A stretch of 64,000 nucleotides of DNA, taken from positions 3,456,001-3,520,000 of the forward strand of contig CBDDPY010000002.1 of assembly GCA_965232515.1 (NCBI GenBank), written 5' to 3'. Shown here piece after piece: positions 7,132 through 61,518 of the stretch. The number at the start of each line of letters is the position of its first letter. The stretch's first letter is position 1. Made by a program: the position numbers and the translations under genes. This DNA comes from Alphaproteobacteria bacterium. GTDB taxonomy: Bacteria > Pseudomonadota > Alphaproteobacteria > GCA-2731375. The notes beneath the pieces are model-generated. The model did not search any database. It was not told where the DNA came from and saw only the letters and a program-made list of their open reading frames with translations.

Positions 7132-7143
7132 GGCGGGGCGACG

Positions 7144-7440
7144 TTATGGCCCGCCGGGGCGCGAATCGATGATGTGCCGCTGGATATACTGATAGGTCCG
7201 GCGTTTCTGCTCCGCGGCGAACTGCTGGCGCATGCATTCGGAGAACGCCGGGGTTTCCGGCTCCAGGCCCCGTTCCCGACAGCTTTCCTCGAACCGTTCC
7301 TGAAGCGGGCGCGGCTCGGCGCAGCCCGCGATCAAGGCGACGGCGGCCAGCGCCACGATTCCCGCCGGGATCCGCCGAAATCGGCGTCCGGCCGGACCGA
7401 TCCAGGCGCGCGAACAACGATTTTGCATCGAGAGGCTCAT
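7144..7440 (-). CDS. small putative lipoprotein
   Basis: Hydrophobic stretch ending in lipobox LIAGC, followed by a C..G..P.T..F..C motif. Start codon uncertain. Confidence 0.55.
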   Translation of the reverse strand: MSLSMQNRCSRAWIGPAGRRFRRIPAGIVALAAVALIAGCAEPRPLQERFEESCRERGLEPETPAFSECMRQQFAAEQKRRTYQYIQRHIIDSRPGGP

Positions 7441-7601
7441 TTCGGCGGCTAGCTGGTATATGGCGACGACGATCCGGCATTCCCAGGCCCGCCGCGTTGA
7501 CCGGTATCAAACGCCGCCGTCAAAGCCTATGTCCGGCCGTTTAGCTGACATAGAATTGGCCTGGGTTAACTCTCGCGGGACACGACGCCAGGACGGCCGC
7601 C

Positions 7602-10841: not shown

Positions 10842-10878
10842 CCCGCTCAGAGACCCCGGGCGGTCCGTCAGGTTCTGA

Positions 10879-11490: not shown

Positions 11491-11586
11491 TCATATCCCC
11501 CTGATGACGTCGTAAAGGGGGTCAGTATATTCGCGCGCGTTAACCATGAATAGTACAACTCGCACGATTTGAGAAAAAACTACGCT

Positions 11587-13125: not shown

Positions 13126-13150
13126 AGGGGTACTCCTCCAGACATCGGCG

Positions 13151-44912: not shown

Positions 44913-46451
44913 CTAACTCCCCGCGATGCGGCGGTCGTGGCCCGACCAGTGGGGTTCGCGGAGGTCCTTGCGTTTGATTTTGCCGACCGGGCTTTTGGGG
45001 AGCGGGTCGGTGCGGAATTCGACGCGGCCGGGCTTTTTGTAGGAGCCGAGGCGGTCGGTGCAGAGGTCGATGATTTCCTGCTCGGATACCGGCGTCTCGC
45101 CGTCGGTGACGCAGACGGCCATGGGCGTTTCGCCCCAGCGCTCGTGCGGCACGCCGAAGACGGCGACCTCGACCACGGCGGGATGGTCGGTGATGACGTT
45201 CTCGAGCTCGGCGGGCCAGATGTTGTAGCCGCCGGAGATGATCATGTCGTCGGACCGGTCCAGCATGTAGAGATAGCCGTTCTCGTCCAGCATGCCGATG
45301 TCGCCGGTCAGCACCCAGCCGTCGACCAGGCGCTCGGCCGTGGCTTCGGGATTGTTCCAGAAACCGACCATCTGGCCGTCGGTTTTGGCGGCGATCTCGC
45401 CGGCCTGGCCGGGCGGCAGCGGCTTGTTGTCGTCGTCGCGGATCTCGAGCTGGGCGAACGGCAGCGCGAGACCACAGGAACGCAGCGGCGTCGAGCCGTC
45501 GACGTCGGCGAACCATTGCCGCGGGCCCATCATGGCGACCGGCAGCACCTCGGTCTGGCCATAGCCCTGATAGAGCACGTCGCCGAAGATCTCGCGGCCG
45601 GTGAGCGCGGTGTCGTCGGCGATCGGCGCCGCCGCGATCAGCAGGCATTTCAACTTCGACCAGTTGCGTTCGCGCACGCCCGGCAGATGGTTGAGGGCGT
45701 TCAGCATGGTCGGGACCAGGAACATATAGGCGATGCCCTCGCCCTCCATGACGTCCAGCGTCTCGACCGGATCGAAATGGTCGAGCATGACGTTGCAGCC
45801 GCCGCCGAGCCAGACCGGCACGAACAGATAGCCGGAGCCGTGGCTGATCGGCCCGAGATGCAGGCAGGGATCGCCCGGCTCGACCGGCGGATAGAGATAG
45901 AACCAGTCGCGCCCGGCGGCGAGCCAGGCGCGATGCGTATAGGCGACGCCCTTGGACTGGCCGGTGGTGCCGCCGGTATGGCGGATGATGTAATTGTCGT
46001 CGGGATCGATCTCGAGGTTGGGATCGATATCGGAATGGCCGGCGAGCCAGGCCTCGTAGCCGTCGTCGCGCACGACGATGTGCCGGAGATCGTCGAGCTC
46101 GGCATCGATGCCGTCGACCTCGTGCGCGTACTTGTCGGCGACGATCACCGCCCGGCAGCCGGTATGGCCGAGCATGTGCAGATGCGCCTCGCGGCCGTTG
46201 CGCGGATAGAGCGGCACGCGCACGACATTGGCGACGGCGGCGCCCAGAAAGATGTCAGCCGACTCGACGCAATTGTCTTCCAGCACGCCGACGCGATCGC
46301 CGGGCTTCAGGCCCATGGCGATCAGCGCGTTGCCCATGCGCACGCCGCGCGCCCAGGCCTCGGCGAAGGTCAGCCGCCGGCCGCCGGCGACGATCGCCTC
46401 CCGCGTGGGATAAAACTGCGCGGCGCGGCGCATCTGCGTGCGCACATCCAT
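44913..46451 (-). CDS. AMP-binding acyl-CoA synthetase
   Basis: HTGGTTGQSKG, GYGQTE, TGDIG, DMIISGG and PKSPVGKI motifs. Confidence 0.93.
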   Translation of the reverse strand: MDVRTQMRRAAQFYPTREAIVAGGRRLTFAEAWARGVRMGNALIAMGLKPGDRVGVLEDNCVESADIFLGAAVANVVRVPLYPRNGREAHLHMLGHTGCRAVIVADKYAHEVDGIDAELDDLRHIVVRDDGYEAWLAGHSDIDPNLEIDPDDNYIIRHTGGTTGQSKGVAYTHRAWLAAGRDWFYLYPPVEPGDPCLHLGPISHGSGYLFVPVWLGGGCNVMLDHFDPVETLDVMEGEGIAYMFLVPTMLNALNHLPGVRERNWSKLKCLLIAAAPIADDTALTGREIFGDVLYQGYGQTEVLPVAMMGPRQWFADVDGSTPLRSCGLALPFAQLEIRDDDNKPLPPGQAGEIAAKTDGQMVGFWNNPEATAERLVDGWVLTGDIGMLDENGYLYMLDRSDDMIISGGYNIWPAELENVITDHPAVVEVAVFGVPHERWGETPMAVCVTDGETPVSEQEIIDLCTDRLGSYKKPGRVEFRTDPLPKSPVGKIKRKDLREPHWSGHDRRIAGS

Positions 46452-46798: not shown

Positions 46799-46926
46799 GT
46801 CCGGGCCGGAGAAGCAGGTTTATCGTTAACCTAATGGTCGGCGGTTCGATTCCGCCTCCGAACACTGGTTCGGATAGCTCAGTTGGCAGAGCACTAGGCT
46901 TACCTGGTTCACAAACACGCCCGGGC
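46799..46926 (+). ncRNA. yrlA: Y RNA, YrlA-type tRNA mimic
   Basis: Same closing scaffold enclosing, in permuted order, a T arm (GGCGG TTCGATT CCGCC), a looped acceptor stem (TCCGAAC/GTTCGGA) and a D arm (GCTC AGTTGGCA GAGC). Confidence 0.88.
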
Positions 46927-47365: not shown

Positions 47366-47505
47366 GGCGGTCCGGGCCGGCAGATCAGGCTTATCGTAGC
47401 CATAAGGCAACTGGTGTTTGGCCAGTGTAGGCGCCCCACCGAGGGCGCGAACCCCCCGTGGATGCGGGCGATGCCCGCCTGATCGAACGACACGCCCGGA
47501 CCGCC
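47366..47505 (+). ncRNA. Y RNA-like module 4 (paralog of module 3)
   Basis: 12-bp closing stem GGCGGTCCGGGC/GCCCGGACCGCC, inner stem GATCAGGC/GCCTGATC, TTATCG and ACACGCCC. Confidence 0.75.
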
Positions 47506-47522
47506 CCGTTGGGGTAGAGACG

Positions 47523-49136
47523 ATGACTTTGCGAGATCTGTTTTCGCGGCGCCGGACGCCGCAGCACGAAGCTTTGCCCGGCCAGGTGGCGAACGCGGCC
47601 GGCGGGCATGCCTTCGCCGTCGATGACTGGGACCGGCTCGACCGGTTTCTGGTGCTCGGCAGCGAGGACGGCACGTTCTACATCGCGCCGCGCGCATTGA
47701 CGCGCGAGAACGCCGAAGCCGTCGAACGTTGCCTGGCCGCCGACGGCGCGCGGGTCGTTGCCCGCGTGGTCGAAATCTCCGATGCCGGCCGCACGCCAAA
47801 GAACGACCCGGCGCTGTTCGTGCTCGCCATGGCGACGGCCAGCGACGATCAGGCGACCCGACAGGCGGCGTTGGCCGCGCTGCCCCAGGTGGCGCGGACC
47901 GGCACGCACCTGTTCCACTTCGCCGAGTTCGTCGAGGGCTTTCGCGGCTGGGGCCGCGGCCTGCGGCGGGCGGTTGCAAGCTGGTACGGCGATCAGCCGA
48001 TCGACCGGCTGGCGCTGCAGATGGTCAAGTACCGGCAGCGGGACGGCTGGTCGCACCGCGACCTGTTGCGGCTCGCGCACCCGGTCACGGCCGATCCGCA
48101 GCGTCGCGCGCTGTTCGAATGGGCCCTGCGTGGCGGCGGCGCCCCCGCGTTGCCAATGTTGGCGCAGGGGTTCGATGCGGCGCAGGCACCGGGGGCCGAC
48201 GTGCCGGCGCTGATCCGGCGGCACGGCCTGCCGCGTGAGGCGTTGCCGACCGACGCGTTGAACGACGTCGCGGTCTGGGCGGCGCTGCTGGAACGGATGC
48301 CGATGACGGCGACGATCCGCAGCCTCGCCAAGATGTCGGCGGTCGGTCTGCTGCGGCCGATGAGCGAGGCGGCCGCCCAGGTCGCGACGCGGCTGGGCGA
48401 CGGCGAAGCGCTGCGCAAGGCGCGGGTGCATCCGCTGGCGCTGCTGGTGGCGCAGTCCGTCTACGCGCAGGGCCGTGGCTTGCGGGGCAAGCTGGAATGG
48501 GAGCCGGTCGCGGAGGTGATCGACGCGCTGGACGCCGCATTCTACCGGGCCTTCGCCAACGTCGAGCCGACCGGCAAGCGGCTGCTGCTGGCGCTCGACG
48601 TGTCCGGCAGCATGACCTGGGGCCAGGTCGCGGGCTCGCCGCTGACGCCGCGTGAGGCCGCCGCCGCCATGGTGCTGGTCACCGCGGCGACGGAGCGCCA
48701 CGTGCGCACCGTCGGCTTCTCGTCGGCCGGCCGGCTGCAGTCGCGGGGCATGTTCGGTGGCAGCCGCGCCGACCACGGCCTGGTGTCGTTGCCGATCTCG
48801 CCGGGACAGCGGTTGGCGGACGTTCTGCGGATCACCGCCGATCTGCCGTTCGGTGGCACCGACTGTGCCCTGCCGATGCTGTACGCATTGGATCGGGGAC
48901 TCGAGGTCGACGCGTTCGTGGTCTACACGGACTCGGAGACCTGGGCCGGGAAGATCCACCCGGTGCAGGCCTTGCGCGACTACCGGCGCAAGACCGGTAT
49001 CGCGGCAAAGCTGGTGGTGGTCGGCATGGTGTCGAACGGCTTTTCGATCGCCGATCCGGACGATGCCGGCATGCTGGACGTGGTCGGCTTCGACGCCGCC
49101 GCGCCAGCCGTCGTCGCCGACTTCATCCGGCGTTAG
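47523..49136 (+). CDS. rsr: Ro60 / Rsr TROVE-vWA RNA-binding protein
   Basis: QVANAAGG, RLDRFLVLGSEDGTFY, RTGTHLFHF, GWGRGLRRA, KYRQRDGWSHRDLLRL, MIDAS DVSGSM, GGTDCALPM and YTDSET; 537 aa. Confidence 0.96.
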   Translation: MTLRDLFSRRRTPQHEALPGQVANAAGGHAFAVDDWDRLDRFLVLGSEDGTFYIAPRALTRENAEAVERCLAADGARVVARVVEISDAGRTPKNDPALFVLAMATASDDQATRQAALAALPQVARTGTHLFHFAEFVEGFRGWGRGLRRAVASWYGDQPIDRLALQMVKYRQRDGWSHRDLLRLAHPVTADPQRRALFEWALRGGGAPALPMLAQGFDAAQAPGADVPALIRRHGLPREALPTDALNDVAVWAALLERMPMTATIRSLAKMSAVGLLRPMSEAAAQVATRLGDGEALRKARVHPLALLVAQSVYAQGRGLRGKLEWEPVAEVIDALDAAFYRAFANVEPTGKRLLLALDVSGSMTWGQVAGSPLTPREAAAAMVLVTAATERHVRTVGFSSAGRLQSRGMFGGSRADHGLVSLPISPGQRLADVLRITADLPFGGTDCALPMLYALDRGLEVDAFVVYTDSETWAGKIHPVQALRDYRRKTGIAAKLVVVGMVSNGFSIADPDDAGMLDVVGFDAAAPAVVADFIRR

Positions 49137-49200: not shown

Positions 49201-50733
49201 TCAGCCTTCGCTGCGGTTCCACGCGCCGGTGAAGCCGAGCGGGCCGCCCTCGGCGGTGACGCCGATGGCTTCGTGCGGCGGGCGGCAGACGACGTTCTTG
49301 CCCTTCCACGGATTGGCCCAGATCGCCACGCCCTTCGGCTTGCCGGCTTGATCGACGCGCTTGTTGACGACGTGCAGGCCGCGGATGGTGATCCGGCCCA
49401 TGGCGATGTCGGAGACATCCGGATTGGTCTGGGCCCGACGCGTCATCCAGGCGCAGAGATTGGCCTCGCCGTAGTTTTTGTCGGTGCGCGGCGAGCCGTC
49501 CTTCAGGTTCGCCTTGTCCGTACCGAAGCCGATGGCCAGCCATTGCGGGCCGTTCGGCTTCACGCACCTGACCTCGCGGATCACGGTGGCGCCGCCCTGG
49601 GGCACCTCGATGCAGGCGCCGGCGGACGCCTCGTAGACGCCGCCCTGGAAGTAGTTCACGGCGCAACGGCTCTTGGCGCCATGCGCCATGACGTTGTTGA
49701 CCGAGGTGACGTCGACCATCACCAGCATCGGGCAGAACCGCTTGCGGCGCCAATCGCCCGAGGCATAGATGCCGTGCGCGCCGTTGGAGTTGGCGCAACC
49801 GTCGAGCCGCGTGTTGAACAGCATCACCCAGCGCCCGGTCGTGCGCACGCAATTGTCCATGCCCTTGATGGTCATGTCGATCAGCACCAGCCGCGAGTCC
49901 CGCCGGCTGGTGGCGCCGATGCCAGCGGTGTATTTGCCGTAAGCCTTGCCGGCCACCGTGAAGCCTTCCATGGTCATGATGCGGTCGGCGTTGTGGCTCA
50001 GACAAAAGCTGCCGCCGCCGGGCCAGCCGTCGCGACAATCGATGACGGTCGGCCGCGTCTTGTCCTGCGCCCGCAGGCGCGACGCATTACGGGCGAACGT
50101 CTCGGTCGCGATCTTGCCGTTGGCGTTCTGATGCTGGCCGATGACGCGGATCGAATGGGTGCCGGGCAGGATCGCGATGCCGCCGTCCTTGGTCCGCCAG
50201 CTTCGCCACTGCCGGTCCGCCTGCAGGATCGAACCGTTGACACCGCGCATGCCGGCATACTGCGGATTCGACCTCAGATCGGCCACACAGGCCCAGGGCT
50301 TGCCGCAATCGACCGTATCGGGGCCGGGACGGCCGAGCCGCAAATACGGTTTCACGAGCGCGAGCACCGTCCGCTCGTTCTCGGTGCCGGCGATGGGCGG
50401 CCCGGCATCGACCACCACCGGCGCGGCGCGGCCGGTCACCACGGCCGGCCCCGGCGGGGCCGGTTTTTCAGCCTTCGGCGGCTCAGCCGCGGGTGGCGCC
50501 GCGGGTGCGTCGCGCTCAGCGGACGCGGCCGGTTGCTCGACCGGCACCGGCGTCAGCAGGAATTCTCCCTCGAGGCGATAGCGTTTGCCATCGATGGTGA
50601 CCTCGAGCTGAGACTGCGCCACCGCGCCCTGCCAACCAAGCGCCAGCAGCAGCAAGCCGCCAATGCCGGCCCAACGCGCGCGCCGCCAGACAAGCGAAAG
50701 ACTGGCAAGAAATATCATTGAACACCGTGTCAT
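49201..50733 (-). CDS. exported protein with probable right-handed beta-helix
   Basis: N-terminal hydrophobic segment, Pro/Ala linker, and HGIY, HGAKSR and IEVPQGG motifs. Start uncertain. Confidence 0.6.
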   Translation of the reverse strand: MTRCSMIFLASLSLVWRRARWAGIGGLLLLALGWQGAVAQSQLEVTIDGKRYRLEGEFLLTPVPVEQPAASAERDAPAAPPAAEPPKAEKPAPPGPAVVTGRAAPVVVDAGPPIAGTENERTVLALVKPYLRLGRPGPDTVDCGKPWACVADLRSNPQYAGMRGVNGSILQADRQWRSWRTKDGGIAILPGTHSIRVIGQHQNANGKIATETFARNASRLRAQDKTRPTVIDCRDGWPGGGSFCLSHNADRIMTMEGFTVAGKAYGKYTAGIGATSRRDSRLVLIDMTIKGMDNCVRTTGRWVMLFNTRLDGCANSNGAHGIYASGDWRRKRFCPMLVMVDVTSVNNVMAHGAKSRCAVNYFQGGVYEASAGACIEVPQGGATVIREVRCVKPNGPQWLAIGFGTDKANLKDGSPRTDKNYGEANLCAWMTRRAQTNPDVSDIAMGRITIRGLHVVNKRVDQAGKPKGVAIWANPWKGKNVVCRPPHEAIGVTAEGGPLGFTGAWNRSEG

Positions 50734-51137
50734 GGTCGCGCCGACGGTCTCTTTCGACCTTTCAGGCCGGACCGTCGTGTTGCCAGACAGTATAACCGGA
50801 ACCGCGCCGATCGCGACCTCAGCGGATATGACTGGATGTGGGAAGCGGCGCGGCTGCAACAAGTTTTGTTTGGTATTTTATATAAATACAAATCGTCTCT
50901 TTAATAAAAATTCAATTTTTCTTAAATGATCTCTAATTTCACAAGTATTCTTGCATCAAAATCAAACAATCACGGCTCAAAGCGGGACGTTTTTCTGACA
51001 CAAATTGTACCATCTCGTATCGGCAATGTCCGGAAATCCCAGGATTCCGGGGTTCGGCCGTTTGGCCCGCCACCTGCAATGATAGCGGTTGGGAGCCGCA
51101 CGGGTGCGGCGTTCGGTTAACGGAGGGCAGCAGAGCC

Positions 51138-51515
51138 ATGCAGGCACAGAACCGCCAAATTCTCGACTATTTCGGTTTCCTCCGGACGCTGAACCACGTC
51201 GACCCCGTTGCCGGCGACCGCCTGGCCGCGCAGCTCGACGACGATCTGTGCTACGAGTTCAGCAGCGCCCAGCACGAAGTCGATGGCGCCCTGGAAATCC
51301 ATACGACGGAATCGGTCAGGACCGCGGCAGATACGGCGCCGCAGATCAGCGTGCACCGGATTTTGCAGGTCGAACGGGGCCGGAACTGCCGGATCGATCG
51401 GGAAAAGATCGTCATCGACGGCTATTTCGACGACATCGACCGCCTGGGCTCGTCGCTGTTCACCTTCCTGACGGAACACGGGTTCGACCGGGTCGCGGGC
51501 GACGCGACCGCTTAG
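51138..51515 (+). CDS. hypothetical protein
   Basis: GGAGG RBS and genome-typical codon usage. No recognised motif. Confidence 0.65.
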   Translation: MQAQNRQILDYFGFLRTLNHVDPVAGDRLAAQLDDDLCYEFSSAQHEVDGALEIHTTESVRTAADTAPQISVHRILQVERGRNCRIDREKIVIDGYFDDIDRLGSSLFTFLTEHGFDRVAGDATA

Positions 51516-51691
51516 GCCGAACCGCTCAATCGCGGCCGGCGAGGCGGTCGGCCGCGTTCGTTTGCTAAACCAACCGTAAATCCCGTTTTACGGTTTTTTA
51601 TTCGTTCTCGCGCATACTTCCGACGAATTCGGAACCGGCGCATTCGTTCGCCCAGTATTCAAATTTGAGCCGATAGTAAAAGAGGCGACAG

Positions 51692-52918
51692 ATGCAAGCC
51701 ACCGCGCGCGGCGCCCTGCCAGCACCGAGCAATCCCGACGACTCGCAAGATCACGACGTTGCCCAGGCGCCGGAAGGCTCCGACATCTCAGCCATTGGCG
51801 CGCTGTCGGCGCAAGACGGTGAGAGCGAGATCGGCCCCGGCCAATATGTCTTTCTGATGGCGCTGGTTATCGTCGGCGTGCTGACGGGCGTCGCCTTCGC
51901 CAATCACAACCTCACCCCCCTGATCTATCAGGAGCCGGCGCAGGCCGAGGTCGCCCAGACCCTCCATGGCGGCCAGAATTACGCGCTCTACGACCTGAAC
52001 TTCGAGATCCGCGGCGTCCGCCGGCATCAGATCCGGCTGATGACCAAAACGCCCGAGTTGATCATCCTGGGCGCCAGTCACTGGCAGGAAGCGCATGCCG
52101 GCCTGGTGCCGGGCGTGGACTTCTTCAACGCCCATGTGCACCGGGATTACTACGACGATCCCATCGGCATGGTCGGCCACCTGCTCGACTACAACCGCCT
52201 GCCGAAGACTCTTGTGATCAGCGTGCGCGACGCCACCTTCACGCCGGTCGCGGAGCGGACCGACTATCTCTGGCTGGGCGGCATCCCGTCCTTCCGGGCC
52301 ATGGAACCCCGCCTCGGCCTGCCGAAACGGCCGTGGTACGAGGACTACCATCTGCAGCCGGTGCTGGACCTGTTCTCCCTGCGATTGGCCATCACCGGCG
52401 GCTTGCGCGAGCTGCGCGCGGAGAACCGGCCCGGCCCGACGGATGCCGATTTCGCCGAGGACCTGGACATCTTCATGGCCGACGGCTCGATCCGCTGGTC
52501 GGGCGAGCACCTCGCCGCCTTCACGCCTGAATATGTCCGCGACCGGGCGCTGGAAATGGCCCAGCACGTCCGCCGGCATCCGCCACGGATCAACGCCGAC
52601 ACGGTCGACGCCTTCCGCCGCATGCTGGCGCTGCTGCAGAACCACGACGTCGATGTTGTGCTGGCCCATCCGCCGTTCAATCCGCAGTTCCACGACGCCG
52701 TCGCCGGCAGCGACTATGCCGATCACCTGAACGCCGTCGAGGCCCTGACCCGGGATCTCGCCGCGCAGTACGGCGCCCGCACCGCCGGCAGCTTCGATCC
52801 CGCCCGGGTCGGCTGCACGGCCGACATGTATATCGATTCCGAGCACAGCCGGCCGGTCTGCCTGCAGAAACTGCTGACGCAGGTCGTGTCCGGCCGCTCA
52901 CAGGCGCCGTCGCTTTAG
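51692..52918 (+). CDS. membrane-anchored SGNH/DltD-like protein
   Basis: One TM helix, LIILGASH (block I Ser) and C-terminal DSEH (DxxH). Adjacent to an MBOAT. Confidence 0.7.
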   Translation: MQATARGALPAPSNPDDSQDHDVAQAPEGSDISAIGALSAQDGESEIGPGQYVFLMALVIVGVLTGVAFANHNLTPLIYQEPAQAEVAQTLHGGQNYALYDLNFEIRGVRRHQIRLMTKTPELIILGASHWQEAHAGLVPGVDFFNAHVHRDYYDDPIGMVGHLLDYNRLPKTLVISVRDATFTPVAERTDYLWLGGIPSFRAMEPRLGLPKRPWYEDYHLQPVLDLFSLRLAITGGLRELRAENRPGPTDADFAEDLDIFMADGSIRWSGEHLAAFTPEYVRDRALEMAQHVRRHPPRINADTVDAFRRMLALLQNHDVDVVLAHPPFNPQFHDAVAGSDYADHLNAVEALTRDLAAQYGARTAGSFDPARVGCTADMYIDSEHSRPVCLQKLLTQVVSGRSQAPSL

Positions 52919-52943
52919 CCGGCCGCCCGTTGGAGCAACCGTC

Positions 52944-54467
52944 ATGCTTTTCCATTCCGTTGAGTTCATTCTGGGCTTTCTGCCCATCTGCTTCATCATC
53001 TTCGCGATCGTGCACCGCACGGCCGGCAAGCGGGCGGCGCTGGCGTGGCTGGCGCTGGCGTCGATTATCTTCTATGCGCAATGGAGCCTGGCGCATGGCG
53101 CCTTGCTGGTGGGTTCGGTCGGCACGAACTACCTGTTCAGCCGGGCCATGCTGCGCACCGATCAGCAGCCGAAGCTGCGACAGGCGATCTTTATCCTCGC
53201 GATCGCGGCGAACCTCGCCCTGCTCGGCTATCTGAAGTACACGAACTTCCTGATCGACAATATCAACGCGCTGACCGAGGCGAACTATCACTATGTCGCC
53301 GTGCTGGCGCCCGTCGGCATCTCGTTCTTCACCTTCATCCAGATCGGCTTCCTGGTCGAGGTCTACAACCGCCAGGTCTCGCGCCTGTCGATCGTCGACT
53401 ATTTCCTGTTCGGCTCGTTCTTCGGCTACGTGACCGCCGGTCCGCTGGTCCTGCAGCGCGACATGACCTCGCAGTTCGAGCGCAAAGACGACAAGGTGCT
53501 CGATCTGTCGCGAATCTCGATCGCGATCACGGTCTTCGGCTTCGGCCTGTTCAAGAAGATGGTGCTGGCCGACAGCGTCGCGCCCTATGCCGACGCAGTC
53601 TTCAACGGCGTCGCCGACGGCGCGCTGCCATCGACCAGCCTGGCCTGGATCGGCGCGCTGGCTTACACCGTGCAGCTCTATTTCGACTTCTCCGGCTATT
53701 CCGACATGGCGCTGGGCGCCGGCCTGCTGTTCGGCTTGAAGCTGCCGTTCAACTTCAATTCGCCGCTGAAAGCGACCAGCATCACCGATTTCTGGCGCCG
53801 CTGGCACATGACGATGACGCGGTTCTTCACCAACTATCTGTATTCACCGCTGGCCGTCGCCGCGACCCGGCGGGCCATGGCCAACAAGTCTTCGAAGGCT
53901 CAGCGATTTGTCGCCTCCGTCGCCGTGCCGGTGTTCTTCACCTTTCTGCTGGCCGGCATCTGGCACGGCGCGGGCTGGACCTTCGTCATCTTCGGCGCGA
54001 TCCACGGCCTGGCCATGGCGATCAATCACGCCTGGCGCCAATCCAAGGCGCCGACGCTGCCGGCGCCGGCGGGCTGGCTGCTGACAATGTCGGTGGTCAT
54101 TACCGGCCTGGTGTTCTTCCGGGCGCCGGACGTGTCGACCGCGCTGGTCATCCTGACCGCGATGGTCGGCGCCGGCGCCGACGCCAGCGGCTGGGTCGCG
54201 ACCGTCAACGTGCCGACTGTGTCCTATCCAGACGCCGTCGCCGTCATCACGCTGCTGGCCGCCATCGCCCTGATGATGCCGAACACGCAGCAGATCCTGT
54301 ACCGCCACAAGATCAGCTCGGACCCGGCCGACTACGAGGAGCTGTCGTTGTCGAAGTGGCTGCTCTGGCGACCGACGCTGCGCTGGGCGGCAACCTGCGG
54401 CATCGTCGTCGCCGTGGCGCTCGGCCTGGCGACCGGCGAGACCGCGTTCATCTATTACCAGTTCTGA
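52944..54467 (+). CDS. MBOAT membrane-bound O-acyltransferase (AlgI/DltB family)
   Basis: PVGISFFTF, GLFKK, QLYFDFSGYSDMA, FWRRWHM, AGIWHG (catalytic His) and FIYYQF. Confidence 0.94.
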   Translation: MLFHSVEFILGFLPICFIIFAIVHRTAGKRAALAWLALASIIFYAQWSLAHGALLVGSVGTNYLFSRAMLRTDQQPKLRQAIFILAIAANLALLGYLKYTNFLIDNINALTEANYHYVAVLAPVGISFFTFIQIGFLVEVYNRQVSRLSIVDYFLFGSFFGYVTAGPLVLQRDMTSQFERKDDKVLDLSRISIAITVFGFGLFKKMVLADSVAPYADAVFNGVADGALPSTSLAWIGALAYTVQLYFDFSGYSDMALGAGLLFGLKLPFNFNSPLKATSITDFWRRWHMTMTRFFTNYLYSPLAVAATRRAMANKSSKAQRFVASVAVPVFFTFLLAGIWHGAGWTFVIFGAIHGLAMAINHAWRQSKAPTLPAPAGWLLTMSVVITGLVFFRAPDVSTALVILTAMVGAGADASGWVATVNVPTVSYPDAVAVITLLAAIALMMPNTQQILYRHKISSDPADYEELSLSKWLLWRPTLRWAATCGIVVAVALGLATGETAFIYYQF

Positions 54468-54495
54468 CCCCGCGTACTGCCTGGGAGATCATGTC

Positions 54496-55701
54496 ATGAC
54501 GATCGTCATCGACCTGCCACGACAAATCGACGAAACGCTCGCCGCCGACATCGAGAAGGAGTCGGTGTTCGTGTCGCCGCATCTGTCCACGCTGCGGGTC
54601 AACCCCGACCGCACCAACATCGCCGCCGAGCTGACCGATCCCATGTGGGACGCCGACGTGCGGGAAAAGCTCGGTCGGTTCCTTGACGCCATGCTGAAGC
54701 GGGTGCATCAGTTCGACACCAAGGTCTTCCTGCAGACCGAACGTCGCGATCCGAACCCTTTTCACACAGATGTGCACGGCGAGCTGAAACGCCGCGGTTG
54801 GCTCTACGACTTTGGCGGCGGCCATGTATCGCTGGCCGGCCCGGCCCTTAACCTGGCGCGGGCCATCGACGCGGCCGCGGCCGACCTCTATCGGCAGAAT
54901 TTCCCGTTCGAGGAGCGCCAGTATCCGGCCCTGATCCGGGCCGATCTGCTGGCGCGCTGCGGCTATTTCGAATCGCACCCCAATGCCGTCTGCTTTGTCG
55001 GCCACATCATCGAGGACTTCGACGCGATCGAGAACTTCCGCGTCACCAACAGCAATGTCGACGAGACCGTTCTGCCGCCGAAGGATCACGTGCACCTGCC
55101 GGGCATGTGTCTGAACCCGGCTGCCTGCTTCCCTTGCTACCCGTCGCTGCAGGGCCAGAAGATCGCCGACGACGGCCGCGTCCTGTCCTGGAACGGCCGG
55201 GTCTTCCGCTTTGAATCCCGCAACGTGTCGGGCCTGGACCGGCTCTGGGAGTTCGGCGTCCGAGAGATCGTGTTCATCGGCACCGAGGACTTCGTCACAC
55301 GGAGCCGGGAGCGGGCACTGCCCCTGGTCGCGAAGCTGGCCGAGACATTCGACCTCGCCTGCCAGGTCGAAACCGCGGCCGATCCGTTTTTCGCCACGGT
55401 CTCGGCGGCAAAAACCTTCTGGCAGCAGGCCCAGGAGGTGAAGAACGAGATCATGGTGCCGATCGGCGTTCGCGAGGACGGCAGCGAGCGGCGGCTGGCC
55501 TGCGGCTCAGTCAACCTGCACGGCAACTTCTTCGGCGAGCGCTTCGACATCACCGATAGCGAGGGCTTGGCCGCCTTCACGGCCTGCATCGGTCTCGGCA
55601 TCGAGCGCTGGGTGCTGGCGGCGTTCGTGCAGCACGGTTTCGATCCCGAACGCTGGCCGAGCCAGGTGCGCGACCTTGTGTTCGCCGGAACCAACCCCTG
55701 A
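54496..55701 (+). CDS. amino acid:[carrier protein] ligase (class II seryl-tRNA synthetase paralog)
   Basis: GYFESHP, PAACFPCY, motif 2 FRFE..RLWEF..RE, A.DPFF, SVNLH..FG and motif 3 ACIGLGIERW. Adjacent to a carrier protein. Confidence 0.82.
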   Translation: MTIVIDLPRQIDETLAADIEKESVFVSPHLSTLRVNPDRTNIAAELTDPMWDADVREKLGRFLDAMLKRVHQFDTKVFLQTERRDPNPFHTDVHGELKRRGWLYDFGGGHVSLAGPALNLARAIDAAAADLYRQNFPFEERQYPALIRADLLARCGYFESHPNAVCFVGHIIEDFDAIENFRVTNSNVDETVLPPKDHVHLPGMCLNPAACFPCYPSLQGQKIADDGRVLSWNGRVFRFESRNVSGLDRLWEFGVREIVFIGTEDFVTRSRERALPLVAKLAETFDLACQVETAADPFFATVSAAKTFWQQAQEVKNEIMVPIGVREDGSERRLACGSVNLHGNFFGERFDITDSEGLAAFTACIGLGIERWVLAAFVQHGFDPERWPSQVRDLVFAGTNP

Positions 55702-55757
55702 CAGGTGGCCGACGGCCGGCCTGTTCACTACCAACCGAAGCAGAAAGGCTTTGCGCT

Positions 55758-55988
55758 ATGTCAGCTTTGCATCAGATCGTGGCAGACGTCCTGGAAATGT
55801 CGGTCGCCGAGGTCAGTGACGAAACCAGTCCGACCACGGCCAAGAGCTGGGACAGCATGAAGCACATCGAGCTGGTCCTGGCGCTGGAGACCAATTTCGG
55901 CGTCAAGTTCGCACCGTCGGAGATCATGCTGATCAACTCGCTCGGCGCGGCGCGGGATCTGCTGAGCCAAAAAGGCGCGGCGGTCTAA
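55758..55988 (+). CDS. acyl/aminoacyl carrier protein
   Basis: 76 aa with the WDSM phosphopantetheine Ser motif and LE.NFGV. Confidence 0.9.
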   Translation: MSALHQIVADVLEMSVAEVSDETSPTTAKSWDSMKHIELVLALETNFGVKFAPSEIMLINSLGAARDLLSQKGAAV

Positions 55989-56081: not shown

Positions 56082-57599
56082 CTAGCCGACAACGAGCGCC
56101 GCCGGCGCGACGATGCGGTCCTTCGGCAGCAGGATGCGCGCCGTCGTGCCGACGCCCGGTTCGCTCTCCAACTCGAAGCTGCCGCCGTGCAGCTCGGCAT
56201 ACCATTTCACCAGCGGCAGGCCGAGACCCGTGCCCTCGTAGTGACGGCTGAGCTCGCTGTCGGCCTGGCCGAAGGGCGTCAGACACTTTTCAATGTCCTC
56301 GGCGGCAATGCCGATGCCGGTGTCCCGCACGGTGAATTCGAGACCGCCGTCGCCTGCCCGATCTACCTCGAGGGTGACGGTGCCGTTGCCCGGCGTGAAC
56401 TTCACGGCGTTCGACAACAGATTGATCAAGGCCTGGCGCAGCGCCCGTTCGTCACCCTGGACCGCGTGCAGATCGGACGCAATCCGCGACTCCACACGGA
56501 CGCCTTTGTCGTCCGCCTGAGGCGCCGTCTGGCGCAGGCAAAAGGACACCAGCAGCTCGAGGTCGACGGCCGCTTCATGAATCTCGGTCATGCCGGCCTC
56601 GATCTTGGACAGGTCAAGGATGTTATTGATGATGCCGAGCAAATGCTCGCCGCTGTGGTAGACGTCATCGATATAGACACGATACTTCTCGTCGCCGAGC
56701 GGTCCGTGCAGCTCCTGCATCATGATTTCCGAGAAGCCGATGATCGCGTTCAGCGGCGTGCGCAGCTCGTGACTGACATTGGCGAGGAACGCCGACTTCG
56801 CCCGGTTGGCCGAATCCGCCGCCTCCTTCGATCGCACCAGCTCGATTTCGGCCGCCTTGCGCTCGGTAATGTCGAGGCAGATCAACACATGCATGCCCTG
56901 CGGCGCCGCGTTGTGGCGCACCTCGAGGATGTGCTCCTGCGGGGTTGTAACCTCTTGCGCGCCCTCCGACTGCAGCGCGGCGATATCGACCAAGCCGAGC
57001 AGGGCATCACCGACCGGCTTGTCGGCGCCCGACGAAACGGCGCTCTCGTCGCTCTCACCGGCGCCGGATGCATCGAGTTCCAGCAGATCCCGCAAACGGC
57101 TGTTGCAGGCAACCAGTCGCATGCCGCGGTCGAAGGCCGCAATGCCCGCGCCCGTATGCTCCAACGTCGCGGTCAGCAATGCCGTACGCTCGGCCAGGTC
57201 GGCCCGGTTGCGGGCCTGCACGATGGCGTAGCGGATGGTCCGTTCCAGAATTTCCGGCGACAGGCTGCCCTTCTCCAGGAAGTCGGCTGCGCCGGCTTCG
57301 GACGCCTCGACGTCGATTTCCCGGTTCGCCAGGCCGGTCAACAGGATCAGCGGGACCTGGCAGCCCTCGGCAACCGCCGCGCGGATGAAGGCCAGACCGG
57401 TCTCGGCGCCGATCCGGTAATCGACGAGACCGATGTCATACATCTCGGCTTCGAGCTGGCTGCGCGCTTCGTCGAAGCTGCGGACCCAGGTCAGGTCCAG
57501 ACTGAACAGCTTGGAGTCGCTGAGCAGATCGTCCAGCAACAGGTAGTCGTCCTCGTCATCCTCGACGAGAAGGCAGCGTATGCGCGCGGCTTCACTCAT
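56082..57599 (-). CDS. hybrid sensor kinase REC-PAS-HisKA-HATPase
   Basis: LLVEDD, VDY, SHELRTPLN, NLLSNAVKFT and GTGLGL motifs. Confidence 0.92.
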   Translation of the reverse strand: MSEAARIRCLLVEDDEDDYLLLDDLLSDSKLFSLDLTWVRSFDEARSQLEAEMYDIGLVDYRIGAETGLAFIRAAVAEGCQVPLILLTGLANREIDVEASEAGAADFLEKGSLSPEILERTIRYAIVQARNRADLAERTALLTATLEHTGAGIAAFDRGMRLVACNSRLRDLLELDASGAGESDESAVSSGADKPVGDALLGLVDIAALQSEGAQEVTTPQEHILEVRHNAAPQGMHVLICLDITERKAAEIELVRSKEAADSANRAKSAFLANVSHELRTPLNAIIGFSEIMMQELHGPLGDEKYRVYIDDVYHSGEHLLGIINNILDLSKIEAGMTEIHEAAVDLELLVSFCLRQTAPQADDKGVRVESRIASDLHAVQGDERALRQALINLLSNAVKFTPGNGTVTLEVDRAGDGGLEFTVRDTGIGIAAEDIEKCLTPFGQADSELSRHYEGTGLGLPLVKWYAELHGGSFELESEPGVGTTARILLPKDRIVAPAALVVG

Positions 57600-57637: not shown

Positions 57638-58099
57638 TCAGGCGTGCCGCACGCAACCCGGCGGCAGCTGGACGATCTCGATCCAATAATTGCTGAGGAT
57701 TCGCACGACCTCGACCAAGCCTTCGAACGTTACCGGCTTGGTGATGAAGGAGTTCACGCCGGTGACATAGGTCCGCAGGATGTCTTCTTCGGCCTTCGAC
57801 GTGGTGACGACGACGACCGGTATCGTGCGGAACCGCTCATCTTCTTTCATCTGCCGCAGCGCCTCACGGCCGTCCATCTTCGGCATGTTGAGGTCGAGCA
57901 GAACCAGGCCCGGATAGGGTTGGCCGTCGAGATGCGCCCAATCGCCTTCCCGGCGCAGATAGGCGAGGAGCTGCTCCCCGTCCTCGACAAAGTCGAGGTG
58001 ATTGCCGATGCAGTTCTCCTTGAACGCATCCTCGATAAGCATCCGGTCGTCCGGATCGTCGTCAGCGACCAGAATCGAGATGGAATCCCGTCGGTTCAT
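57638..58099 (-). CDS. single-domain response regulator (Rcp1-like)
   Basis: ADDD, LLDLNMPKMDG, FITKP and YW motifs. Confidence 0.93.
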   Translation of the reverse strand: MNRRDSISILVADDDPDDRMLIEDAFKENCIGNHLDFVEDGEQLLAYLRREGDWAHLDGQPYPGLVLLDLNMPKMDGREALRQMKEDERFRTIPVVVVTTSKAEEDILRTYVTGVNSFITKPVTFEGLVEVVRILSNYWIEIVQLPPGCVRHA

Positions 58100-60090
58100 T
58101 GCATTTCCGTCCCTTGCTCGTGCTTGAGGGGCAGCGTGAGGATGAACGTGGCGCCCTCGTCCTCGACGCCGCGGGCCTCTATGGCGCCGTAGTGGCGTTC
58201 AACGATCTTCCGGCAGGTCGCCAGTCCGATTCCGGTGCCCTCGTAGGTGCCACGTCCGTGCAGGCGCTGGAAGATCCCGAAGATCTGTTCGGCGTATTTG
58301 GCATCGAAGCCGATGCCGTTGTCGGCGATGCTGATGCGGCAGGCCTCGGCGTCCGCGCGCGCGACCGGTCCCTCGCCGTCCGATGCGATCAGCTCGGCCG
58401 TGATCTCGACCCGCGACGGCACGCCGTCACGGCGGAACTTCAGCGCGTTGCTGATCAAGTTCTGGAACAGCTGCCGCATCTGAACCGCGGACGCCTCTAT
58501 ATCGGGCATTTCGGCGACCTCGACCGTCGCCTCCGTTTCGGCGATGCGGATTTCCAGATCCGACAGAACCTCCTCGATGACCTTGTTCAGGTCGATCGGC
58601 TCGAACGGCTCGGTCCGCGAGGTCACGCGCGAATAGGTCAGCAGGTCGTTGATCAGCTCGTGCATGCGCCCCGCGGCGTCCTGGATGCGGCCGATATAGA
58701 GCTGACCGTCCTCGCTCACCTGGTCGCCGCACTTTTTGACCAAGCGGTCGCTGAAGGCCTGAATCTTGCGCAACGGCTCCTGCAGGTCGTGCGAGGCGAC
58801 GTAGGCGAATTCCTGCAGTTCCCGGTTGCGCCGTTCCAGCGCCTCGGCATGCTTATGAAGACTGGCTTCGGCCTGCGCCCGGGCGGTGATGTCCTCGTAG
58901 GTGGCGACCGAACCGCCACCGGCCATGGGCTGATGCAGCACGGCGATAACGCGGCCGTCGCCCAGGCGCTGCTCGATGATCGACTGCTGCCGCTGCGCGG
59001 CCTGGCTCGGCCGCTCGGCCAACGCCCGGCCAGCTTCGTCGCGCCGGTAATTGCCCAGCGAAATGCTGTATTCCATGATGTCGCGCAGCCGGATGCCGGG
59101 CTTCACGACGTCGGGCGAAAACCCGTACATGTCCAGGTAGCGTTGATTGCAGACGATCAGACGCTGGTCCGAGTCGAACAGGCAAAGCCCCTGGGCCATG
59201 TTGTTCAAGGCCGTGTCGAAGTGCAGATTCTGCACCTTCAACACCTCGCTCAATCGCGTCAGTTCGGCTTCGCGCCGCTTCAACTCGGTAATTTCGGAAC
59301 GAATGCTGACAGTGTTGCCGTCGCTGGTGCTGGTTTCGCTGCAATGCAGCCAGCGCCCGTCGCCCAACTGGATTTCGAAGCTGTCGCGGCGTCCACGAAT
59401 GGCGTCCTTGCGCAACTTCAGCAAGCTCTCGGCCGACTCGTATTCGCTGGAATACTGTCCTAGCGCGAAGGCGTCCCGCAGCAAACTCTTGTAGCGGGAG
59501 CCGGGCAGCAGGCGGTCGGCGATCACCGGGTGATAGTCGCGATAGCGCTCGTTGCAGAACATCAACCGGTCGTCCTGATCGAACAGGGCGAAGCCGTCGG
59601 CCATGCAGTCCAGCGCATCCAGCACTTCGGCACGGGCCGCGACCGCGGCATGCTGGCGCAGAAACTGGTCGAGCGCATCGTCGGCATCCTTGCGGGCGCA
59701 GACCCGGATCAGACCGCCGCCGTAAAGCGGCGCCGTGACGGTGGTGATCGTGCAATCGTCCCGACGCGCCCAGTCCTCTCGGAAGGGTTGCGCCTTGTGA
59801 GCCTGGTCGATCAACCGGATCGTCTGCCGCTCGGTCTCGCCCAGGCTCAATTGTCCACGCGCGGCGGCGAAGCGAAGAAAGTCCTCATACGCCCGTCCAC
59901 GCTGGGCGAAGGCGACCGGCAGTTCGAGCAACTCGAAAAAGTCGTGGTTCCACGCCGTCAGCCGCAGACCGGAATCAAACAGCGCCATGCCGACATCGAG
60001 ACGGTCATCGGCATCCGACGCGAGCGTCCGGTTTTCGGCCGGCCGCTGAGTGGACCTGATGGGACGGATCGCGACCATGAAGGAACCCAT
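58096..60090 (-). CDS. multi-PAS sensor histidine kinase
   Basis: Three PAS-7-like domains, ASHDLQEPLRK, NLISNALKF and GTGIGLA. Start uncertain. Confidence 0.92.
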   Translation of the reverse strand: MGSFMVAIRPIRSTQRPAENRTLASDADDRLDVGMALFDSGLRLTAWNHDFFELLELPVAFAQRGRAYEDFLRFAAARGQLSLGETERQTIRLIDQAHKAQPFREDWARRDDCTITTVTAPLYGGGLIRVCARKDADDALDQFLRQHAAVAARAEVLDALDCMADGFALFDQDDRLMFCNERYRDYHPVIADRLLPGSRYKSLLRDAFALGQYSSEYESAESLLKLRKDAIRGRRDSFEIQLGDGRWLHCSETSTSDGNTVSIRSEITELKRREAELTRLSEVLKVQNLHFDTALNNMAQGLCLFDSDQRLIVCNQRYLDMYGFSPDVVKPGIRLRDIMEYSISLGNYRRDEAGRALAERPSQAAQRQQSIIEQRLGDGRVIAVLHQPMAGGGSVATYEDITARAQAEASLHKHAEALERRNRELQEFAYVASHDLQEPLRKIQAFSDRLVKKCGDQVSEDGQLYIGRIQDAAGRMHELINDLLTYSRVTSRTEPFEPIDLNKVIEEVLSDLEIRIAETEATVEVAEMPDIEASAVQMRQLFQNLISNALKFRRDGVPSRVEITAELIASDGEGPVARADAEACRISIADNGIGFDAKYAEQIFGIFQRLHGRGTYEGTGIGLATCRKIVERHYGAIEARGVEDEGATFILTLPLKHEQGTEMQ

Positions 60091-60375
60091 AGAACAGTTC
60101 AGGCCCGTTTGACCGGCGGAAAGGCCCAACGGGCCAGCGCGCCAGCCCCGCCGATACGCCGGGCTTTGACATGAGGGGAATCTAGTCGACCGTGCTTAAA
60201 GATGCCCTAATCAGCGCACGGCAATCGCAGGATTCGGAAAAAAATCACAATCGGAAGTTGATAAACCGTTCAAATCGAACGGCAGCGCCACTAAACCGTG
60301 CCACTGCTGAACGCATTCTTAATGGTCGTCCGACAGAATGGCGCTCGTCAGTTTCGCAAGATGTGAGAGGCAGGA

Positions 60376-61518
60376 ATGCCTTCGCAGGGAAAGCGGCAGA
60401 AGCGGCCGCCTGCTGTTGGAGATGCCCCGTCTTCCCTGCCATCCGCCGGGAACCAGACGGATGATTCCGATCATGCCGGATCGGGCGACGGCCTGTGGCA
60501 TCAAGCCAGGACCGAGCTCGCCGACAATGAGATCGGCCGCCGGTTGATCAGCACCGACGCGGACGACAAGGGCTCGGCCAATCTTCGTTACTATGGCCGT
60601 TTCGTCGTCTTCGGCGGCGTCATCGTCGGCTTCGCGGTGCCGGCGATCTCGGAGGCGCTTAAGCCCTTCTTGTCGGTCCTGCTGATCGCCACCCTGGTAT
60701 TCGGGTTGCTGCAGGTCGACTTCGAGCGTCTCGCCGGCTTCCGCAAACAGGTCTGGCCCATCACGGGCCTGCTCTTCGCCGTTCTGCTGCTGCTGCCGGT
60801 GTTCGTCGCGCTTGAGGCCAAGGTTGTCCTTGTGGCCTACGGTCTGCCACAGGGGATCGCCGACGGATTGATTTTGGCGGCCCTGTCGCCGCCGCTGCTG
60901 GCGGCGCCAGCCATTGCCTTCCTGCTTGGCCTGGACTCGCTGCTCGCTTTCGTGGTCGCCATGATCGCCCACCTGCTGGCGCCGTTGACCGTGACGTTCC
61001 TGGCGCAATGGCTGGTCGGGCCGCACCTGCAAATCGACTCGGCGGAGCTGATGTCCCGGCTGACCGTCATCATCGGCACAGGCTTCATCATCGGTCTGAC
61101 GCTGCGACGGATTCCGCTGACCGCACGTGTCAGCAAGGCGAATCGCGGCCTTATCGACATCCTGTCGATCGCGACCCTGACGCTGCTGGCCGCGGCCCTG
61201 ATGGATGGTGTCGCAGAGATCGCAATCCGCGACCCGCAATACGTCCTTATCGCCGTGGCCTGCGGATTTCTGCTCAATCCGCTGCTGCAACTCCTCGGCG
61301 CCTTCCTGTTCGTGAAGTCGGGATTCGAAATGTCGCTGACGGTCGGCCTGCTGGCCGGCTATCGAAATGTCGGCCTGCTGATCGCGGCACTGGCGGGCGG
61401 CGCCGACCAGGAGGTCATCGCCTTTCTGGCGATCGTCCAGATCCCCGCCTTCGTCATTCCGATGCTGTCAGGCCCCGTCCTGAAGAAAGTCAAAACCATC
61501 GGCTTCGACAGACCCTGA
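60376..61518 (+). CDS. bile acid:sodium symporter-like membrane transporter
   Basis: About 10 TM segments, SPP..AAPA.A.LLG and GYRNVGL motifs. Start uncertain. Confidence 0.65.
   Translation: MPSQGKRQKRPPAVGDAPSSLPSAGNQTDDSDHAGSGDGLWHQARTELADNEIGRRLISTDADDKGSANLRYYGRFVVFGGVIVGFAVPAISEALKPFLSVLLIATLVFGLLQVDFERLAGFRKQVWPITGLLFAVLLLLPVFVALEAKVVLVAYGLPQGIADGLILAALSPPLLAAPAIAFLLGLDSLLAFVVAMIAHLLAPLTVTFLAQWLVGPHLQIDSAELMSRLTVIIGTGFIIGLTLRRIPLTARVSKANRGLIDILSIATLTLLAAALMDGVAEIAIRDPQYVLIAVACGFLLNPLLQLLGAFLFVKSGFEMSLTVGLLAGYRNVGLLIAALAGGADQEVIAFLAIVQIPAFVIPMLSGPVLKKVKTIGFDRP

Follow-up and report, generated by a model that had tools for sequence, protein, structure and literature searches.

Gene content of the locus

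We describe an apparent four-gene operon within a 64,000-nucleotide stretch of DNA from Alphaproteobacteria bacterium (GenBank assembly GCA_965232515.1, contig CBDDPY010000002.1, positions 3,456,001 to 3,520,000 of the forward strand), hereafter the window, with coordinates counted from its first letter. The four genes place a homologue of aminoacyl-tRNA synthetases beside a carrier protein, an MBOAT acyltransferase and an SGNH-fold protein, an arrangement that recalls the Dlt system (DltA, DltC, DltB, DltX and DltD) responsible for the D-alanylation of teichoic acids in Gram-positives. All four are encoded on the forward strand, beginning with an SGNH-fold, DltD-like protein (P0001; 51692-52918; 408 amino acids, assigned from its open reading frame (ORF) and AlphaFold2 fold) and an MBOAT acyltransferase (P0002; 52944-54467; 507 amino acids, PF03062), and continuing with a zinc-type class II aminoacyl-tRNA synthetase homologue predicted to be an amino acid:[carrier protein] ligase (P0003; 54496-55701; 401 amino acids) and a phosphopantetheine carrier protein (P0004; 55758-55988; 76 amino acids, PF00550). 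The initial annotation of this DNA had described four same-strand genes with gaps of 25-56 bp, and the ORF coordinates agree with it exactly, the gaps being 25, 28 and 56 bp. A coding signature was evident in all four ORFs, with a GC content of 0.83-0.90 at third codon positions (GC3) versus 0.39-0.44 at second positions (GC2) in a genome of 65% GC.

A consensus scan placed two terminator-like hairpins on the forward strand just upstream of the first gene (51531-51556 and 51572-51595), and the gene 3' of the carrier is convergent to the operon, so that the four would appear to make up a transcription unit of their own. Although the scan found 10 sites where shuffled sequence was expected to give 3.8, each single site is weak; these hairpins likely end an upstream unit and mark the 5' boundary of the operon. 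Two genes further upstream were considered as operon members and rejected. Among loci L001-L011, the 125-amino-acid ORF at 51138-51515 had its sole close match in L001 (91% identical), as did the AMP-binding gene at 44913-46451, for which the distant actinomycete locus L010 bears a match of 27% identity.

The predicted ligase and its carrier protein

Evaluating the synthetase homologue revealed two kinds of relatives at nearly the same distance. P0003 matched the amino acid--[acyl-carrier-protein] ligase model NF005479 with 155.3 bits (E 1.7e-45, residues 139-395) and the methanogen-type seryl-tRNA synthetase (SerRS) model NF002120 with 155.8 bits (E 1.5e-45), the latter far from its cut-off of 611, while a second methanogen-type SerRS model, TIGR00415, gave 124.3 bits against a cut-off of 489.55. 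Sequence matches in the PDB were likewise divided between Bll0957 (3mey, 1.6e-32) and a type-2 SerRS (3w3s, 2.7e-32). The AlphaFold2 model, with a predicted local distance difference test score (pLDDT) of 83.8, matched by VIA the fold of Methanosarcina SerRS (2cj9_B, Z 30.6 over 324 residues) and that of the glycine:[carrier protein] ligase Bll0957 (4h2s_B, Z 30.3 over 292 residues, 27% identity), with bacterial and eukaryotic SerRS at Z ~25. P0003 is equally close to methanogen SerRS and to Bll0957.

Residues 1-67 of the protein make up a small N-terminal domain, and residues ~68-401 its catalytic core. Across an alignment of 33 sequences, three of them at 26-27% identity, the residues C211, E240 and C364, the motif 2 arginine R238 and the motif 3 residues G366-G368-E370-R371 were invariant. 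The cysteine and glutamate positions line up with those of Bll0957 and type-2 SerRS, as in a zinc-type class II core, and we propose C211, E240 and C364 as zinc ligands, positions that we take to be zinc ligands in the solved relatives as well. The N-terminal domain was modeled as a beta-alpha-beta-beta-alpha unit that aligned loosely (root-mean-square deviation 9.6) with a portion of the N-terminal domain of methanogen SerRS; compared with the tRNA-binding domain of SerRS it falls well short in length, yet is present. Methanogen SerRS carries ~160-190 residues before the aligned core (VIA alignments start at 159-168 and phmmer at 191), compared with ~67-90 in P0003.

The carrier candidate P0004 belongs to the PP-binding family PF00550 (27 bits, cut-off 20.8, E 5.5e-6), and its Ser33, within a WDS motif, aligns to the serine of the acyl carrier protein DSL motif, making it the predicted phosphopantetheine site. 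W31, S33, H36, E44, F51 and E55 were invariant in all 28 sequences aligned. The protein lies outside the DltC equivalog by the curated model NF003464 (15.5 bits, cut-off 68). Together with the pattern of carrier genes beside related ligases described below, these features lead us to predict that P0003 is an amino acid:[carrier protein] ligase, for which a small amino acid would be our guess at the substrate, by analogy with its relatives.

The MBOAT and its tyrosine motif

P0002 is an MBOAT by Pfam (PF03062, 89.1 bits, cut-off 27, E 4.3e-25), and the nearest curated model, TIGR04091 for DltB, scored 173.7 bits against a cut-off of 375, which leaves the protein outside the DltB equivalog. Among solved structures DltB comes closest (6bug, E 7.4e-30), and the RWHMT and GIWHG segments of P0002 align to its histidine motifs. 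Both histidines, H288 (in RWHM) and H341 (in WHG), were invariant in 20 of 20 aligned sequences. P0002 is ~100 residues longer than DltB and has extra C-terminal hydrophobic segments at residues 426-444 and 478-496, after which the protein ends in FIYYQF (residues 502-507; 54447-54464, forward strand). F502, Y505 and F507 were invariant in the same 20 MBOATs and Y504 in 19, the exception being L093 with FLDYSF.

This C-terminal FXYXXF on two added transmembrane helices is the architecture of the PatA/AlgI type. As described in the available text of PMC12148441, FXYXXF is an acyl-shuttle motif whose tyrosine bears the acyl group; Dlt has it on a separate microprotein, DltX, while other bacterial MBOATs carry it fused, on two extra helices. 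The suggestion in the initial annotation that FIYYQF acts as a tyrosine relay in the manner of DltX fits this published motif well. The same portion of that source states that MBOAT/SGNH pathways other than Dlt have no carrier protein and that PatA-type MBOATs with the fused motif use acetyl-CoA (PMC12148441). An acyl-CoA donor with no carrier is not what the gene content here suggests, since the operon encodes both a carrier and a ligase.

The same genome holds a second MBOAT elsewhere (G000:C2:2945842-2946468; locus L108, 7525-8898, reverse strand), which ends in FIYFRF. Its neighbors encode a UDP-GlcNAc 2-epimerase, an NAD-dependent epimerase/dehydratase, a SIS-domain protein and a protein with APS-kinase and GTPase domains, and a search of locus L108 found neither ligase nor carrier near it. 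As an internal contrast, this MBOAT in a sugar-nucleotide/glycan locus without a carrier supports the specificity of the link between the operon's MBOAT and its carrier and ligase.

The SGNH protein

P0001 was the hardest of the four to place by sequence. Pfam returned a single sub-threshold match (NonGDSL, PF25182, 18 bits), an NCBIfam scan returned zero matches, and PF04914 (DltD) gave no match at E up to 0.1; 442 database relatives were found, and those among the 120 matches listed were unnamed or hypothetical. The AlphaFold2 model (pLDDT 89.2) was more informative, with the top four Foldseek matches all being DltD (3bma, 6pfx, 6o93 and 7dxm, at E 2e-4) and the top four VIA rows likewise DltD, at Z 12.9-13.2 over 248-261 residues. 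Generic SGNH proteins followed at Z ~12 over ~180 residues and PatB at Z 10-10.9. From the modeled structure the SGNH fold class is firm, while the special likeness to DltD is modest and would rest mainly on the longer aligned span. Nearest named neighbors in a protein atlas included DUF1574, DltD and SGNH clusters, which we treat as leads only, and one homologue (P0251) had a sub-threshold DltD match of 18.9 bits.

Conservation within the family fits the SGNH blocks, as G127-A128-S129, N330, D382, H385, C375 and C390 were invariant in 42 of 42 sequences, and we propose Ser129, Asp382 and His385 as the catalytic residues. The protein is predicted to begin with an acidic N-terminal tail and one transmembrane helix (residues 52-70), followed by an extracytoplasmic catalytic domain, such that an N-terminal anchor and an SGNH-like fold with Ser-Asp-His are combined as in DltD-type proteins. 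Its sole two cysteines, 375 and 390, flank the Asp-His loop and would suit a disulfide outside the cytoplasm. Each of the four gene assignments made initially (SGNH/DltD-like, MBOAT, ligase and carrier) is in this way backed by hidden Markov model, fold or alignment evidence.

Several longer homologues carry C-terminal extensions. Three of 10 long SGNH homologues matched SPOR, a peptidoglycan-binding domain, at their C-termini (P0149, 38.8 bits; P0152, 22; P0156, 19.6), two of them above the Pfam cut-off of 21, which hints that these proteins point to peptidoglycan. A profile built from the three recovered, among 27 long targets, just those three and gave no match in the window or in any locus examined; the other C-terminal extensions inspected were low-complexity tails.

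Conservation of the four-gene linkage

To assess linkage we used 35 loci with ligases 50-91% identical to P0003, of which 8 came from species genomes, 23 from metagenomes and 4 from genome searches (L110, L111, L115 and L116), and scored gene presence by tblastn; L090/L091 and L097/L098 are near-duplicates, and G401 is the same contig as L001. The carrier was found in 34 of 35 loci, the sole miss being L086, whose contig ends 28 bp past the ligase match, and a dedicated carrier gene next to the ligase is accordingly the rule. An MBOAT was present in all 28 loci with upstream flank (one incomplete), the other seven having <100 bp of flank, and the SGNH gene was present in 24 of the 25 loci that were testable. 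All four genes were also kept in L097/L098 despite a rearrangement to the order SGNH, carrier, MBOAT, ATP-grasp gene and ligase. A reciprocal search used the SGNH homologue P0149 as query against 401 genomes of the class; it matched the SGNH part of that query alone and returned 3 positive genomes (the window's own, G522 and G652), each with all four genes. The four-gene linkage is strongly conserved. The initial annotation had named its absence in advance as one finding that would count against the proposal, and the linkage was instead kept over the 35 loci to ~50% ligase identity and appeared in three distant lineages.

Some individual loci deserve separate mention. The MBOAT of L008 (3168-4700) and the ligase of L082 (3342-4532) each contain one in-frame stop, possibly from decay or assembly errors. 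The ATP-grasp gene of L097 (7716-8966, forward strand; PF13535) has weak matches to L-amino-acid ligases (dapdiamide synthase and BacD), as does its counterpart in L098, and hints at a dipeptide or modified donor.

Beyond these loci the picture changes. Among 40 loci of more distant ligases (27-36% identity), an MBOAT lay within 8 kb in two, L042 and L043, such that the co-occurrence of amino acid:[carrier protein] ligases with MBOATs, which the initial annotation had proposed surveying, holds in one ligase clade and fails as a general rule. The ligases of L042 and L043 (26-27% identity) and that of L009, from a Planctomycetota metagenome-assembled genome, each stand beside an MBOAT and a carrier-like ORF, and the MBOATs of L042 and L043 terminate in FIYFQF. 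L043 has a DUF1574-like gene just 5' of the ligase, and this low-GC variant (5168-13606) groups a KAS III-like gene, the carrier, the DUF1574-like gene, the ligase, the MBOAT and a methyltransferase/PIG-L fusion.

A quick maximum-likelihood tree of the ligases, with 48 rows after 15 of 62 were dropped (7 short, 7 running past a terminal stop and L082 with its internal stop), gathered the window ligase in a clade with a Shimodaira-Hasegawa-like approximate likelihood ratio test (SH-aLRT) value of 98, where all 16 rows were MBOAT-linked. The 15 rows of short-form alphaproteobacterial ligases formed another clade, lacking any MBOAT within 8 kb, and in a third clade L042 and L043 were sister to 12 rows without an MBOAT link. 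Pairing with MBOAT-SGNH belongs to the window clade and a few others and is no general property of amino acid:[carrier protein] ligases. In the tree the P0003 clade appears as sister to the known amino acid:[carrier protein] ligases, outside them by the curated cut-off. Long-form sister-clade ligases without an MBOAT (L044-L056) are accompanied by a carrier, together with weakly GNAT-like proteins of ~370 amino acids in five loci and a polysaccharide deacetylase in two, and these may represent a second, cytoplasmic use of the aminoacyl-carrier. Read across lineages, the gene neighborhoods suggest that ligase and carrier form a portable donor module that serves different acyltransferases, MBOAT-SGNH or GNAT-like depending on the lineage.

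A co-travelling phosphorelay and membrane protein

The operon has travelling companions, a soluble phosphorelay and an SBF-like membrane protein, newly recognised here. Downstream of the carrier, on the reverse strand, lie a soluble hybrid kinase with REC-PAS-HisKA-HATPase architecture by Pfam (56082-57599), a single-domain response regulator of 153 amino acids (57638-58099, PF00072) and a soluble histidine kinase of 677 amino acids with three PAS_7 domains by Pfam (58096-60129), followed on the forward strand by an SBF-like polytopic membrane protein of the bile acid:Na+ symporter family (60376-61518, PF01758). The receiver is the most conserved neighbor, with a homologue of at least 50% identity in 19 of 35 loci, at 60-95% and on either side of the operon. 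Homologues of the hybrid kinase occur near many related loci, and those of the PAS_7 kinase, which has no transmembrane segment, occur in related loci at 45-89% identity. A Pfam scan found no DNA-binding domain in the three regulatory proteins. NCBIfam gave generic sub-threshold matches only for the kinases, the receiver and the SBF-like neighbor; the best for the hybrid kinase, far under their cut-offs at ~211 bits, were the cell-cycle kinases PdhS and DivJ, and it is conceivable from these matches that the phosphorelay is linked to polar or division-site control. The receiver also matches a DivK-type NCBIfam model.

The SBF-like protein matched PF01758 at E 2.8e-10, shows nine hydrophobic segments and has a homologue in 13 of 35 loci. 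Loci L003, L004 and L005 encode the SBF-like domain as an in-frame N-terminal fusion to the SGNH protein, and the 819-amino-acid homologue P0261 combines a weak SBF match with an SGNH part; the SBF-like protein is probably an accessory subunit, judging from such sequences. The SGNH ORF of L116 (8353-10059, forward strand) begins with a receiver domain (PF00072, 36.8 bits), and this fusion, a single case, ties the phosphorelay to the transferase and places the SGNH N-terminus in the cytoplasm.

Proposed pathway

Taken together, these features support the Dlt-like interpretation first put forward in the initial annotation. We think it fairly probable, on sequence grounds, that the operon encodes a Dlt-like pathway in which a synthetase homologue stands in for DltA and the MBOAT carries the tyrosine shuttle as a fused part, in the manner of PatA/AlgI, with a product that would probably be an aminoacyl ester on an extracytoplasmic envelope molecule. 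In the cytoplasm, P0003 would activate a small amino acid with ATP and form a thioester on the phosphopantetheine of carrier Ser33, and the loaded carrier would then dock at the cytoplasmic face of the MBOAT. His288 and His341 would pass the aminoacyl group to the tyrosine of the MBOAT's own FIYYQF tail on the periplasmic side, from which the membrane-anchored SGNH protein would receive it on Ser129 and give it to an acceptor hydroxyl. The SBF-like protein would serve as an accessory subunit in the membrane complex, and the PAS kinase, receiver and hybrid kinase may form a phosphorelay controlling the system. For the acceptor, the best lead points to peptidoglycan or some other molecule on the outer side of the inner membrane. 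The fuller proposal, of a regulated Gram-negative O-aminoacylation machine that builds Dlt logic from other parts, with a SerRS-derived ligase, and acts on peptidoglycan or a periplasmic polymer, is one to which we would give an even chance.

Several observations weigh against this interpretation. P0003 is far under the equivalog cut-off of NF005479 (155 vs 357 bits) and keeps a 67-90-residue N-terminal piece that is outside the coverage of the solved Bll0957 structure. A 42-sequence profile of P0001 searched against PDB chains returned 0 matches at E up to 10, DltD included, and the Z of its fold match to DltD is within 1 of that to generic SGNH esterases. The linkage has its exceptions as well. 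The carrier of L006 lies 6.9 kb upstream, apart from the ligase, and L110 (G402, an 83%-complete metagenome-assembled genome) has an intact ligase and carrier beside only the last 195 residues of the MBOAT and no SGNH gene, being either a decayed copy or a misassembly. No glycan-synthesis genes were linked to the operon at the loci examined, and by analogy P0002 could use acetyl-CoA as PatA-type MBOATs do.

A predicted complex of the MBOAT with the carrier belongs with these points. It scored 0.37, with the best control at 0.00, and at least 89% of contacts were common to the runs, with a partner pLDDT of at least 79. In calibration, 58 of 80 solved complexes passed, as did 2 of 110 mismatched pairs; scores of <=0.60 accounted for only 7 of the 80 solved complexes, yet for both of the mismatches that passed, and by this calibration so low a pass will mislead more often than not, save where the pairing was already likely. 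The score may also be memory, because the DltB-DltC complex has been solved, and the modeled complex gives weak support to docking.

Alternative explanations

The alternative that survives best holds that the locus contains two chemically separate modules, with the MBOAT-SGNH pair O-acetylating or otherwise acylating an envelope polymer from acyl-CoA in the manner of PatA/PatB and the ligase-carrier pair supplying an aminoacyl thioester to another, cytoplasmic reaction, the two being linked through common regulation or a common target alone. Consistent with this are the PatA/AlgI architecture with its fused FXYXXF, in view of the acetyl-CoA use of PatA given in the accessible text of PMC12148441, the weak MBOAT-carrier complex score and the sister clade, where GNAT-like cytoplasmic proteins, and no MBOAT, are the partners of ligase and carrier, and where the donor module can therefore serve other acyltransferases. 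We nevertheless consider separate modules unlikely. The 35 loci share no conserved third acyltransferase, the recurrent neighbors being the phosphorelay and SBF-like gene only, the gaps between the genes are just 25-56 bp, the association of MBOAT, carrier and ligase arose or persisted in at least 3 further distant lineages, and the genome's other MBOAT works without a carrier, in a glycan locus.

A second alternative accepts transfer from the carrier and changes the product, such that the carrier-bound group would be further built, or the acceptor would be a lipid or small secreted molecule, to give an aminoacyl lipid or metabolite with no glycan decoration. The ATP-grasp gene resembling L-amino-acid ligases between MBOAT and ligase in L097/L098, the KAS III-like gene adjoining the carrier of L043 with its methyltransferase/PIG-L gene, and the membership of the SBF-like partner in a transporter family all point this way. 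Such tailoring genes are nonetheless found neither in the window nor in most of the 35 loci, the MBOAT-SGNH pairs described in the available part of PMC12148441 all act on envelope polymers, and the SPOR matches of the long SGNH homologues speak for an envelope target, such that we see a slim chance for a lipid or metabolite product.

That P0003 is still a tRNA synthetase, a duplicated and perhaps inhibitor-resistant or stress-specific SerRS unrelated to its neighbors, is highly improbable: in sequence and fold methanogen-type SerRS is no further from it than Bll0957 is, a small N-terminal domain is retained and many of its homologues are named seryl-tRNA synthetase by JGI, but it falls well short of NF002120, its N-terminal region is less than that of methanogen SerRS by the lengths given above, a carrier gene accompanies it in nearly every locus, a canonical serS is present elsewhere in the genome (526.7 bits), and its distribution is patchy, with the ligase turning up in 3 of 32 same-family genomes and no close copy beyond the window's own genome in a phylum-wide sample of 401 genomes.

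Relation to known systems

Within the preferred Dlt-like reading, comparison with described pathways shows where the operon fits and where it departs. Its ligase shares a homologous zinc-type class II core and an adjacent dedicated carrier gene with Bll0957 and Bll6282 of Bradyrhizobium and Atu2573 of Agrobacterium, enzymes of a type for which the work of Mocibob et al. (2010/2013) is said to give substrate preferences for Gly and Ala. P0003 differs from this type in its separate clade (by the quick tree), its 67-90 extra N-terminal residues and its score below the NF005479 cut-off, and the 15 short-form alphaproteobacterial relatives differ in having no MBOAT within 8 kb. AlmEFG of Vibrio cholerae, which modifies lipid A with glycine, likewise aminoacylates the Gram-negative envelope by way of a carrier protein charged by its own ligase; there AlmE is DltA-like, AlmG is a lipid A acyltransferase of the cytoplasmic face, and no MBOAT, SGNH protein or aminoacyl-tRNA synthetase homologue is known to take part. 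AlgI/AlgJ/AlgX and WssH/WssI, MBOAT-SGNH O-acetyltransferases of Gram-negatives, would be a further likeness.

The closest parallel in logic is Dlt, in which, following the available text of PMC12148441, a cytoplasmic enzyme loads a carrier, the MBOAT passes the group to the FXYXXF tyrosine and a membrane-anchored SGNH protein delivers it, steps that the window's proteins would repeat by analogy. Of the MBOATs with a solved structure DltB is the nearest, and the SGNH protein finds its best fold match in DltD. The differences from Dlt are several: the activating enzyme of the window is a class II aminoacyl-tRNA synthetase homologue whereas DltA is an ANL adenylating enzyme, the tyrosine motif is fused to the MBOAT through two extra helices whereas Dlt has the microprotein DltX, and the window system fell outside the families in membership tests for DltA, DltB, DltC, DltD and DltX. 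The hosts, moreover, are alphaproteobacteria-like Gram-negatives without teichoic acids, and a phosphorelay and SBF-like protein are attached. With PatA/PatB the window shares an MBOAT with a C-terminal FXYXXF and a separate periplasmic SGNH partner, PatB being among the fold matches noted above; unlike the window operon with its ligase and its carrier (34 of 35 loci), PatA/PatB uses acetyl-CoA and no carrier, as far as the available text of PMC12148441 describes it. The window system thereby cuts across the two-type division drawn in that text, having a fused motif, yet a carrier as well.

Our literature search found no paper that joins an aminoacyl-tRNA synthetase-like ligase with an MBOAT. 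Solved structures and in vitro activity of amino acid:[carrier protein] ligases have been available since 2010. What biological role amino acid loading on carrier proteins serves is nonetheless given as unknown in the accessible part of a 2022 review (PMC9437257). The operon gives one clade of these ligases a concrete downstream partner and a testable product. If the proposed pathway is correct, it would give amino acid:[carrier protein] ligases their first physiological role and be the first carrier-protein-dependent MBOAT-SGNH pathway outside Dlt. A new kind of surface-charge modification, with a regulatory input that is already identifiable, would also follow if the product were a cationic aminoacyl ester on an envelope polymer of a Gram-negative.

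Other genes in the window

Upstream of the operon, an ORF of 553 amino acids on the reverse strand (49201-50862) has a GC3 of 0.85, with no Pfam match and no homologue in related loci. Further upstream lies an orthologue of Ro60/TROVE (47418-49136, forward strand; PF05731 and PF25045). A YrlA Y-RNA-like match (46832-46896, forward strand; 35.2 bits, gathering score 69, E 1e-4) is located ~520 bp 5' of Ro60, and the two likely represent a bacterial Ro-Y RNA pair.

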